DNA from: Escherichia coli
GTDB lineage: Bacteria; Pseudomonadota; Gammaproteobacteria; Enterobacterales; Enterobacteriaceae
Assembly (NCBI RefSeq): GCF_024502345.1
Contig: NZ_JALDNN010000001.1
Length of the DNA stretch: 64,000 nucleotides
Strand: one strand, 5' to 3'
A program made the translations under genes and the position numbers. The notes below the pieces were generated by a model that saw only the letters and a program-made list of their open reading frames with translations, made no database searches and was not told the DNA's origin. Below are positions 27,102-29,648 of this stretch, one piece after another (positions within the stretch are counted from its first letter, which is position 1; each line of letters begins with the position of its first letter).

Positions 27102-28457
27102 TTAACGGTGCAACCAGCCTGGCAGCCAGTCGCCGTGGGCGGCAATCAGGTCGTCAACAAGAGCATATATTTCGTCAATGCCCAGCACGGCGGCAGTATG
27201 CGGGTCCATCATCGCGGCGTGGTAAACACGGTCGCGATTTTCCGTAAGAATAGCTTCGGTCAGCAGCGTCTGTACGTTAATGTTGGTTTGCATCAGGGCG
27301 GCCAGATGCGAAGGTAGCGTACCGACTTTGGTCGGCTGAATGCCATTAGCATCAACCAGACAGGCTACTTCCACGCAACATCCTTGTGGCAGGTTATCAA
27401 TCAAACCATCGTTACGGACGTTGCCGTAAATCACACTCGGCTCGCCCGTCCAGATAGCGTTCATGATTGTGCTGGCATATTCCCGTGACGGTTTAATATC
27501 AATCCGGGAGGCGTTTTTATACTCCTCCAGCTCTTTATGCCAGTTCGCCAGCTGCTCGACGCAGCGTTTCGGGTACTCATCCAGCGGTACTTTATAACGC
27601 TCAATCAAATCCTCACGACCTGGCTTAATAAACCACGGTGTGTACTCAGCAAAATGTTCTGACGATTCCGTGACGAAATAGCCCAGCTTTTTGAACATTT
27701 CGTAGCGCACAATATTCTGGCAGCGAGTATTGCCATGAATATTCGGCTTCGGTGCCTGCCCTGCGTCATAAGCCGCCAGCAGTTCCGGGTAGAGATTCAC
27801 GTAACTGCCGTCGGCGGTTTTGCGCTCCAGCTCCAGGTAAAACGCCATATGGTTGATACCTGCGCAACGGTAACGCAGCGTAGCCGGGTCGATATTGAGG
27901 TCACGCGCCAGCTCTTCCGCCGTTCCCTGCACCGAATGGCACAGCCCGACCTGTTTGATATGCGGATAGCGGGCATACATCGCCCAGGTATTCATCGCCA
28001 TTGGGTTAACATAGTTGAGCATGGTGGCATCGGGGCAGACTTCCGTCATGTCCTCGCAAATTTGCCACAGATGCGGAATGGTACGTAGCGCGCGCATAAT
28101 ACCGCCCGGCCCCAACGTATCGGCAATGGTTTGTTCCAGACCATGCCGCTTACAGACCTCGAAATCAGTCACCGTGCAAGGTTCATAACCGCCAATCTGA
28201 AATGCCACCACGACAAAATCGGCATCCTCTAAGGCTTCTTTCTGTTGGGTGTGGCAGGTGATTTTGCCGCTGGCCCCTGCTGAATCCATCAGCTTACGCA
28301 CCACAATATGCGACTCTTCCAGGCGGGTGGGGTCAATGTCCATCAGGGCAATATGCGCCGTTTTCAGCGCCTCGCGATGGAACACATCACCAAGAATATT
28401 TTTAACGAAAATCGTCGAACCAGCGCCGATAAATGTAATTTTGGGTGCAGACATCAT
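27102..28457 (-). CDS. melA: Alpha-galactosidase MelA
   Basis: 451-aa ORF with N-terminal Rossmann motif FIGAGSTIF; upstream of melB. Confidence 0.95.
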   Translation of the reverse strand: MMSAPKITFIGAGSTIFVKNILGDVFHREALKTAHIALMDIDPTRLEESHIVVRKLMDSAGASGKITCHTQQKEALEDADFVVVAFQIGGYEPCTVTDFEVCKRHGLEQTIADTLGPGGIMRALRTIPHLWQICEDMTEVCPDATMLNYVNPMAMNTWAMYARYPHIKQVGLCHSVQGTAEELARDLNIDPATLRYRCAGINHMAFYLELERKTADGSYVNLYPELLAAYDAGQAPKPNIHGNTRCQNIVRYEMFKKLGYFVTESSEHFAEYTPWFIKPGREDLIERYKVPLDEYPKRCVEQLANWHKELEEYKNASRIDIKPSREYASTIMNAIWTGEPSVIYGNVRNDGLIDNLPQGCCVEVACLVDANGIQPTKVGTLPSHLAALMQTNINVQTLLTEAILTENRDRVYHAAMMDPHTAAVLGIDEIYALVDDLIAAHGDWLPGWLHR

Positions 28458-28739
28458 GCAGATCTCCTGGCTTGCTTGAATAACTTCATCATGGCAGGCG
28501 AATCTGCAGAAAACCTCCGGCTTCCAGGTTGAGCATTCCCATAAACTCAGATCCTGCGTGAAGCAGCAGTAAATCTGAGTTTATGGGAATAATTTACCTG
28601 AAAAGCAGAGTTTTCGGCCTCATGATGCTCGGACACTCCCCTCGCCCCTCTGGGAAGAGGGTGAAAACCGTGCTCCCACTCGCAGTCATCCTCCCTCACT
28701 CCTGCCATAATTCTGATATTCCAGGAAAGAGAGCCATCC

Positions 28740-29648
28740 ATGAATACAGATACGTTTATGTGCAGCAGCGACGAAAAACAGACCCGCAGCCCGCTGTCGC
28801 TGTATTCGGAATACCAGCGGATGGAGATTGAGTTTCGCGCACCGCATATCATGCCCACCAGCCACTGGCATGGTCAGGTCGAAGTGAATGTGCCTTTCGA
28901 TGGCGATGTGGAATACCTGATCAACAATGAAAAAGTGAATATCAATCAGGGTCATATCACGCTGTTCTGGGCCTGTACACCGCACCAACTAACAGATACC
29001 GGAACCTGTCAGAGCATGGCGATTTTTAATCTGCCGATGCATCTGTTTCTCTCCTGGCCGCTGGATAAAGACCTGATTAACCACGTCACTCACGGCATGG
29101 TGATCAAATCACTGGCCACACAGCAACTTAGCCCGTTTGAAGTGCGCCGCTGGCAGCAGGAATTAAACAGTCCGAACGAGCAAATTCGCCAGCTCGCCAT
29201 TGATGAAATTGGCCTGATGCTCAAGCGATTTAGCCTCTCTGGCTGGGAACCGATTCTGGTCAATAAAACCTCGCGCACACACAAAAACAGCGTCTCGCGC
29301 CATGCGCAATTTTATGTTAGCCAGATGCTGGGCTTTATTGCCGAAAACTATGATCAGGCGCTGACCATCAACGATGTGGCTGAGCACGTCAAACTTAACG
29401 CCAACTATGCAATGGGGATATTCCAGCGGGTCATGCAATTGACGATGAAACAGTACATTACCGCGATGCGCATCAACCACGTTCGCGCGTTACTGAGCGA
29501 TACCGATAAAAGTATTCTCGATATTGCCCTGACGGCAGGCTTTCGTTCAAGTAGTCGTTTTTACAGCACGTTCGGCAAATATGTCGGCATGTCGCCGCAA
29601 CAATACCGCAAACTTAGCCAACAGCGCCGCCAGACGTTTCCCGGCTAA
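28740..29648 (+). CDS. melR: Melibiose operon regulator MelR (AraC family)
   Basis: 302-aa ORF with C-terminal AraC-type HTH, divergent from melAB. Confidence 0.95.
   Translation: MNTDTFMCSSDEKQTRSPLSLYSEYQRMEIEFRAPHIMPTSHWHGQVEVNVPFDGDVEYLINNEKVNINQGHITLFWACTPHQLTDTGTCQSMAIFNLPMHLFLSWPLDKDLINHVTHGMVIKSLATQQLSPFEVRRWQQELNSPNEQIRQLAIDEIGLMLKRFSLSGWEPILVNKTSRTHKNSVSRHAQFYVSQMLGFIAENYDQALTINDVAEHVKLNANYAMGIFQRVMQLTMKQYITAMRINHVRALLSDTDKSILDIALTAGFRSSSRFYSTFGKYVGMSPQQYRKLSQQRRQTFPG

Follow-up and report, generated by a model that had tools for sequence, protein, structure and literature searches.

The 282 bp that separate the divergent genes melA and melR in the E. coli DNA analysed here form, with a probability of about 0.9, the standard melAB-melR control region, in which a perfect 18-bp inverted repeat corresponds to MelR sites 2 and 1 together with the CRP site CRP1, and a GC-rich 24-mer is a decayed, truncated copy of the BoxC repeat that acts as spacer only. 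The analysis centred on a window of 64,000 nucleotides, meaning the whole stretch of DNA that was studied, with an E. coli O157:H7 background and a mel spacer that is 100% identical to that of O157:H7 strains. Both the inverted repeat, a textbook operator arrangement, and the BoxC family are already known, and both features are present in K-12. What is modestly new is comparative, namely an Escherichia-specific BoxC relic in the mel spacer and a distance between the upstream MelR sites and site R that differs from genus to genus by increments of roughly one helical turn.

The inverted repeat and the MelR operator map

A first-pass annotation of the window had described a 282-bp melA/melR intergenic region that contains a perfect 18-bp inverted repeat with a 20-nt spacer (28535-28590), and both descriptions are accurate. 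The ORF list leaves 282 bp between the divergent genes (28458-28739; gene names per the K-12 annotation), and both arms were located exactly, with 20 nt between ATTCCCATAAACTCAGAT and its exact reverse complement (Table 1). None of 100 shuffles of the window gave at least two matches to the arm, and no other matches to the inverted repeat were found within the window. Folded as single-stranded DNA, the arm pair reaches -19.1 kcal/mol (z = -8.1). Beyond the perfect core, an imperfect symmetry reaches outward to give 42-nt arms (28511-28552 and 28573-28614) that are 79% complementary.

The corresponding region of K-12 has been mapped in detail and features five 18-bp MelR sites, named 2', 2, 1, 1' and R (Samarasinghe et al., 2008; PMC2377442). 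In that map, CRP1 is placed between sites 1 and 2, site 2 has its centre at -174.5 relative to the melR start, and the melR start is itself 237 bp upstream of the melAB start (PMC2377442). The melR promoter has the -10 hexamer CATAAT and a second CRP site, CRP2, about 41 bp upstream of the start and overlapping the -35 region, while the MelR site consensus is marked by G5 and G13 (PMC2377442). Site R, which has G5 but a non-consensus A13, overlaps the melR start, and MelR bound there is oriented opposite to that at site 2; site 2' is weak and is occupied with melibiose only (PMC2377442).

These published features fit the window coordinates exactly (Table 1). The inverted repeat lies between divergent genes, consists of two opposed consensus 18-mers with G5 and G13, stands at the published distances, and is the same base for base in K-12 MG1655 across both arms and the 20-nt spacer. 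The frames of the remaining upstream sites were placed relative to the melAB start, from which we take site 2' to be at -42.5 (28515-28532), site 1' at -120.5 (28593-28610) and CRP1, with its centre at 28562.5, at -81.5. The underlying numbering of sites at the melAB promoter (-42.5, -62.5, -81.5, -100.5 and -120.5) reportedly comes from Belyaeva et al. in 2000. With these frames, the outer and imperfect parts of the 42-nt arms would correspond to the weaker sites 2' and 1'. Judging from the K-12 experiments, MelR presumably occupies the mapped sites in the window strain as well (PMC2377442).

Table 1. Genes, regulatory sites and BoxC-family elements, in window positions (a dot stands where no strand is assigned).
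Feature	Coordinates	Strand	Sequence	Basis and remarks
melA (alpha-galactosidase), first gene of melAB	27102-28457	-		ORF list; K-12 and Nissle annotations flank the homologous spacer
melAB transcription start	28481	-		inferred: 237 bp from the melR start at 28718 (PMC2377442)
MelR site 2'	28515-28532	.		inferred position; outer part of the extended 42-nt imperfect repeat
MelR site 2 (left arm)	28535-28552	+	ATTCCCATAAACTCAGAT	centre 28543.5, at -174.5 from the melR start; identical in K-12
CRP1, weak CRP site	28552-28573	.		on the dyad, centre 28562.5; putative 22-bp frame set around that centre
MelR site 1 (right arm)	28573-28590	+	ATCTGAGTTTATGGGAAT	G5 and G13; identical in K-12
MelR site 1'	28593-28610	.	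AAAAGCAGAG (core)	putative position; mirrors site 2' in the extended repeat; core kept across genera
Truncated BoxC (PIT/TMECO) relic, mel	28629-28662	-		nhmmer E=4.6e-7; -89 to -56 from the melR start
CRP2 of the melR promoter	28666-28687	.	cGTGCtcccacTCGCA	centre 28676.5, at -41.5 from the melR start
melR -10 hexamer	28706-28711	+	CATAAT	sequence per PMC2377442, read at these coordinates
MelR site R (autorepression)	28711-28728	+	TTCTGATATTCCAGGAAA	G5 and A13; oriented like site 1 and opposite to site 2; includes the start
melR start	28718	+		derived from site 2 at -174.5; agrees with the CATAAT -10 hexamer
melR (AraC-family regulator)	28740-29648	+		ORF list, K-12 annotation, 80 orthologous loci
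Full-length BoxC, phnP-yjdP	55641-55686	+		eco:21_BoxC, TMECO #22; G-rich triplex-motif strand -, 55642-55676
Second two-block BoxC-like palindrome	55715-55740	.	CCCTCTCCCCATTGGGGTGAGGGG	about 30 bp from the full element, in the phnP-yjdP gap

The alignment with K-12 bears directly on the earlier suggestions, since identity to K-12 had been named as the outcome that would speak against them. The MG1655 spacer is likewise 282 bp and agrees with the window at 278 of 282 positions; the four mismatches are at 28593, 28627, 28634 and 28636, and neither the inverted repeat nor the 24-mer is altered. Across the species, the full-length mel spacer is present at constant length in 5398 of 5426 complete E. 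coli genomes, and the 56-mer that comprises the inverted repeat matches a median of one place per E. coli genome.

Several further observations were made within E. coli. One of the four O157/K-12 differences (28593) is at the edge of MelR site 1', while the other three (28627, 28634 and 28636) cluster within 10 bp, in or near the tail of the BoxC relic, a clustering that fits the hypervariability reported around BoxC/TMECO elements. About 1000 E. coli genomes, including Nissle 1917, carry a spacer allele that is 80-90% identical to that of the window. In Nissle 1917 (L002:301-582, compared with 28458-28739 of the window) the changes are concentrated in the CRP1 loop and the BoxC relic, and a single mismatch in site 2 makes the inverted repeat imperfect in that strain. 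A match in E. coli AQ15 that covers half of the spacer was left out of the comparison. In this genome (L004, NZ_CP043487.1 4466187-4471316), 5 kb are annotated as more than 20 tiny pseudogene fragments, which derive from genes that normally extend across tens of kb (cadC, melR, pmrB, proP, phnF, phnO and als). The mosaic lies beside an IS4-like element and is probably an assembly artefact, the alternative being a heavily deleted region.

Conservation of the arms and other readings of the repeat

A MelR scan of species-representative genomes returned 80 loci, and in most of the 60-odd loci from other species an 18-mer like site 2 and one like site 1 were found 77-79 nt from the melA ATG; where melA adjoins melR, nearly all loci have the pair. 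The spacing of the two arms, 38 bp start to start (rarely 39), has been preserved across about 50 species of Enterobacteriaceae and relatives, and the conserved pair spans Escherichia, Salmonella, Citrobacter, Kluyvera, Klebsiella, Raoultella, Pantoea and Serratia. In a multi-species alignment of 19 spacers, the bases of the arms form invariant columns while the 20-nt loop varies freely, a pattern that indicates protein-binding sites as opposed to a base-paired structure or a mobile element. Conservation extends to the melR side of the spacer, where site R is strongly conserved across genera and the GTG...TCGCA of CRP2 is kept in Salmonella, Citrobacter and Kluyvera.

An earlier proposal saw in the inverted repeat and its 20-nt loop a small mobile or MITE-like element that had inserted into the mel promoter and might disturb regulation by MelR or CRP. 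The palindrome is indeed perfect and statistically striking, but its sequence is the same in K-12, it occurs at a median of one place per genome, and no length polymorphism is seen among the 5398 genomes. It is thus neither multi-copy nor polymorphic for presence and absence, and no target duplications flank it in the window sequence. Moreover, its position and 38-bp arm spacing are shared by most sampled Enterobacteriaceae and relatives, with the same site and spacing recurring across about 50 species, and the arms coincide exactly with the published MelR sites 2 and 1 (PMC2377442). We therefore regard a MITE-like origin as practically negligible: the inverted repeat is a conserved operator and not a MITE, and what had been taken for a possible disturbance of regulation is the MelR operator pair itself, with CRP1 on its dyad (PMC2377442). 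A different reading assigns the repeat a role as folded nucleic acid (an RNA hairpin, a terminator or a DNA cruciform, for instance) and not as a pair of protein sites. The strong single-strand fold given above favours it, and several Rfam microRNA-precursor models match weakly. Against this, the repeat is upstream of both published starts (minus-strand 28481 and plus-strand 28718) and is thus transcribed from neither known promoter, and its arm sequences are conserved across species instead of co-varying, with a free loop; a structural role is accordingly extremely improbable. No terminator-like site (a stem-loop followed by a T-run) was found in the inverted-repeat region. The promoter and terminator consensus scan behind this result found nothing at all, which is uninformative given that both promoters are activator-dependent.

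Two candidates were tried and rejected in this part of the work. The Rfam microRNA matches, obtained at a permissive E-value in 28300-28900, score 20-28 bits against gathering scores of 65-135 and represent hairpin noise. A terminator or attenuator role of the inverted repeat was rejected because of its location upstream of both starts. The operator reading carries a more general lesson, which is that two transcription-factor sites can be all there is to a striking perfect palindrome in a divergent promoter.

The scan of other species also brought up a number of unusual loci. The melA-melR region, usually about 260-290 bp, is enlarged to 541 bp in Citrobacter amalonaticus (L044), 1364 bp in Raoultella terrigena (L079) and 1251 bp in Kluyvera sichuanensis (L084); all three keep the MelR site pair on the melA side, and the insertion is presumed to be in the melR-proximal part. 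Several species, among them Citrobacter spp. (L061-L069) and Superficieibacter (L057 and L065), have a second melR-like gene of 73-80% identity; no melA was detected in the 1.5 kb ahead of it, which makes it a paralogous regulator at a separate locus. Finally, a record titled Chryseobacterium sp. 18061 (L054, CACSKA010000008.1) features an enterobacterial-type melR-melA arrangement with 81% MelR identity and a Buttiauxella-like spacer, and it is probably a mislabelled or contaminated assembly.

A BoxC relic in the mel spacer

The BoxC repeat family was described in the 1990s, and its copy number has been reported as 22-32. BoxC elements are the same as the PIT elements of Maher's laboratory, and their TMECO motif has the form CCCTCNCCC-N3-6-GGGNGAGGG-N3-GGGNGAGGG (PMC4666352). 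For TMECO, triplex formation was observed in vitro and raised local sequence variability was found, while a regulatory role was not found; E. coli and Shigella carry the motif in abundance, and Salmonella lacks it (PMC4666352).

The 24-mer CCCCTCGCCCCTCTGGGAAGAGGG (28638-28661, plus strand) had been reported to recur in reverse orientation with one mismatch 3' of phnP, and this is borne out by a minus-strand copy at 55654-55677 (chance expectation 0.00). The latter lies 18 nt past the phnP stop, between the convergent genes phnP and yjdP, and both copies are intergenic. A BoxC profile HMM was built from the 22 published K-12 members (PMC2267715 supplement; 51-position model) and used with nhmmer to search 128 kb. 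It recovers the phnP copy over model positions 5-50 (E=7.6e-16), and the window around 55639-55689 is an exact match to the published eco:21_BoxC (PMC2267715), which is TMECO #22 of MG1655 (PMC4666352). At the mel locus, the match is limited to model positions 17-50 of 51, that is, to 34 aligned low-complexity G/C-rich bases, in which a C-block, a loop, one G-block with an extra mismatch and a non-palindromic tail can be distinguished.

The mel copy is therefore best described as a relic. The three-block TMECO regular expression matches the window only at 55642-55676 (minus strand), and the mel copy has CCCTCGCCC-CTCT-GGGAAGAGG with no third block. Lacking this block, the mel copy falls outside the definition of the triplex motif and a triplex is not expected there; the full motif, considered at one stage for the mel GC-rich element, was rejected for the same reason. 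The mel copy is also absent from the published list of 23 MG1655 TMECOs (PMC4666352), and as a single strand it shows no significant fold (-6.5 kcal/mol, z = -1.0). Genome-wide counts fit a dispersed family: a 55-mer of the phnP copy is matched at a median of 19 places per E. coli genome (maximum 34), in agreement with the 22-32 BoxC copies reported, and a 43-mer around the mel 24-mer, for which such a count had been proposed, matches a median of 14.

The phnP-yjdP gap holds, in addition, the second palindrome of Table 1. It is detected by the profile on both strands (E=5e-4 and 1e-3, model positions 18-42) and also by the two-block regular expression, and it resembles the degraded partners seen at paired TMECO sites (PMC4666352).

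It might be argued that the GC-rich 24-mer does not derive from BoxC and instead arose in place, its likeness being due to chance or convergence, for example as the binding site of an unknown factor. The failure of the mel copy to satisfy the TMECO definition, its omission from the MG1655 list, the low-complexity G/C nature of the matched sequence and the insignificant fold all favour this view. However, the profile match (E=4.6e-7 in 128 kb) does not stop at the palindrome but includes the non-palindromic tail of BoxC (GGGGA.TGTCCGA), the 24-mer has one difference in 24 bases from a canonical BoxC member, and the segment is absent from all non-Escherichia spacers, just as BoxC is reported absent from Salmonella (PMC4666352). 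An origin in place is accordingly quite unlikely, and on sequence likeness the mel 24-mer is assigned to the BoxC/PIT/TMECO dispersed repeat family as a fragment. The practical consequence is that any short GC-rich palindrome from the intergenic DNA of E. coli should be compared with BoxC, REP and ERIC before novelty is claimed.

The history of the segment can be read from the comparison of species. In the 19-spacer alignment, the GC-rich segment is found in Escherichia spacers only (O157, K-12, the B2 strain Nissle, E. whittamii and Escherichia sp. E1V33), while other genera have unrelated, AT-richer sequence and a 12-column gap at this position. When the BoxC profile was run on the 80 melR loci, only an Escherichia spacer matched and no non-Escherichia locus did; two more diverged Escherichia spacers (L006 and L007) are below the profile threshold. 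The relic is fixed within E. coli and, at the mel locus, was found only in Escherichia. Together with the absence of BoxC from Salmonella (PMC4666352), this restriction suggests that the BoxC segment was most likely acquired in the ancestor of Escherichia, either as an insertion followed by loss of a block or as the insertion of a partial copy, and that it has most likely decayed since, more so in B2 strains and in L007. The earlier proposal of a mobile-type insertion thus survives in part for the 24-mer, which is a fragment of a dispersed repeat family restricted to Escherichia at this locus; as an event it is ancient, with the segment fixed and present in K-12.

Spacing, proposed mechanism and comparison with known systems

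Sites 1 and R are separated by distances of five classes: 138 bp in four Escherichia sequences, 125-127 bp in 33 loci including Salmonella, Citrobacter, Kluyvera, Cedecea and Pantoea, and 114-116, 106 or 93-94 bp in other genera; the Escherichia value is about one helical turn longer than the 126 bp of Salmonella, Citrobacter and Kluyvera. A period of about 10.75 bp describes the five classes (R=0.94, p ~0.01 against a uniform distribution), a fit that is to be read as one of five classes with phylogeny ignored. This suggests that the spacer between sites 1 and R changes by whole helical turns across genera. In K-12, MelR autorepression is weakened when 5 bp are inserted into or deleted from the spacer, and it is restored by a 10-bp deletion or by insertions of 41 or 91 bp (PMC2377442), and the ladder agrees with this published phase-dependence.

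Taken together, the map and the comparison are consistent with the following mechanism. Each 18-bp arm would bind one MelR monomer, the two in opposite orientation, with the weak CRP1 on the dyad between them. In the presence of melibiose, four MelR subunits (at sites 2', 2, 1 and 1') and one CRP dimer would activate melAB, and in its absence, MelR at sites 2, 1 and 1' together with site R would form the complex that represses melR. The BoxC relic, which lies between site 1' and CRP2 of the melR promoter and is transcribed from neither known start, most likely entered in the Escherichia ancestor. On the best reading it now has no function beyond that of phase-keeping spacer DNA, whose length would place site R and the upstream MelR sites on one side of the double helix. 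The published K-12 mel promoter experiments already covered the spacer that contains the relic, and a literature search for a link of melR to triplexes or BoxC found nothing relevant.

A specific regulatory effect of the relic is nevertheless possible. Capture of a BoxC copy between site 1' and CRP2 by the Escherichia ancestor would have moved sites 1 and R one helical turn further apart, from 126 to 138 bp, and put G/C-rich in place of AT-richer DNA just upstream of the class II CRP site, in the stretch that the RNA polymerase alpha C-terminal domain would occupy. This may have retuned the autoregulation or CRP dependence of melR relative to Salmonella and Citrobacter, with the ladder of 94, 106, 115, 126 and 138 bp pointing to evolution by whole turns. 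We offer this scenario as a speculative one and consider it unlikely as a whole.

The closest known system is the K-12 melAB promoter studied in the Busby laboratory, with its MelR sites 1 and 2 and CRP1 (PMC2377442). The window shares with it the 18-bp inverted arms with G5 and G13 at 38 bp centre to centre, the position of site 2 at -174.5, and the expected distances of site R, CRP2 and CATAAT; it differs at no base within sites 1, 2 and CRP1, and the four spacer bases that differ are outside them. With the BoxC/PIT/TMECO family (PMC2267715, PMC4666352), the mel copy has in common the C-block, loop, first G-block and tail as well as the intergenic location, and the family is represented by roughly 14-34 BLAST-detectable places per genome; the mel copy differs in the absence of the third block (GGGTGAGGG) and in the extra mismatch in its remaining G-block (GGGAAGAGG). 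A more distant parallel is the O2-I1 loop of araC/araBAD, which likewise features an AraC-family regulator, distant sites in a divergent promoter region and repression that depends on helical phase (for mel, PMC2377442). The comparative mel spacing ladder agrees with such distant-site, phase-dependent repression, although the published mel model is a four-MelR repression complex and not a simple loop (PMC2377442).
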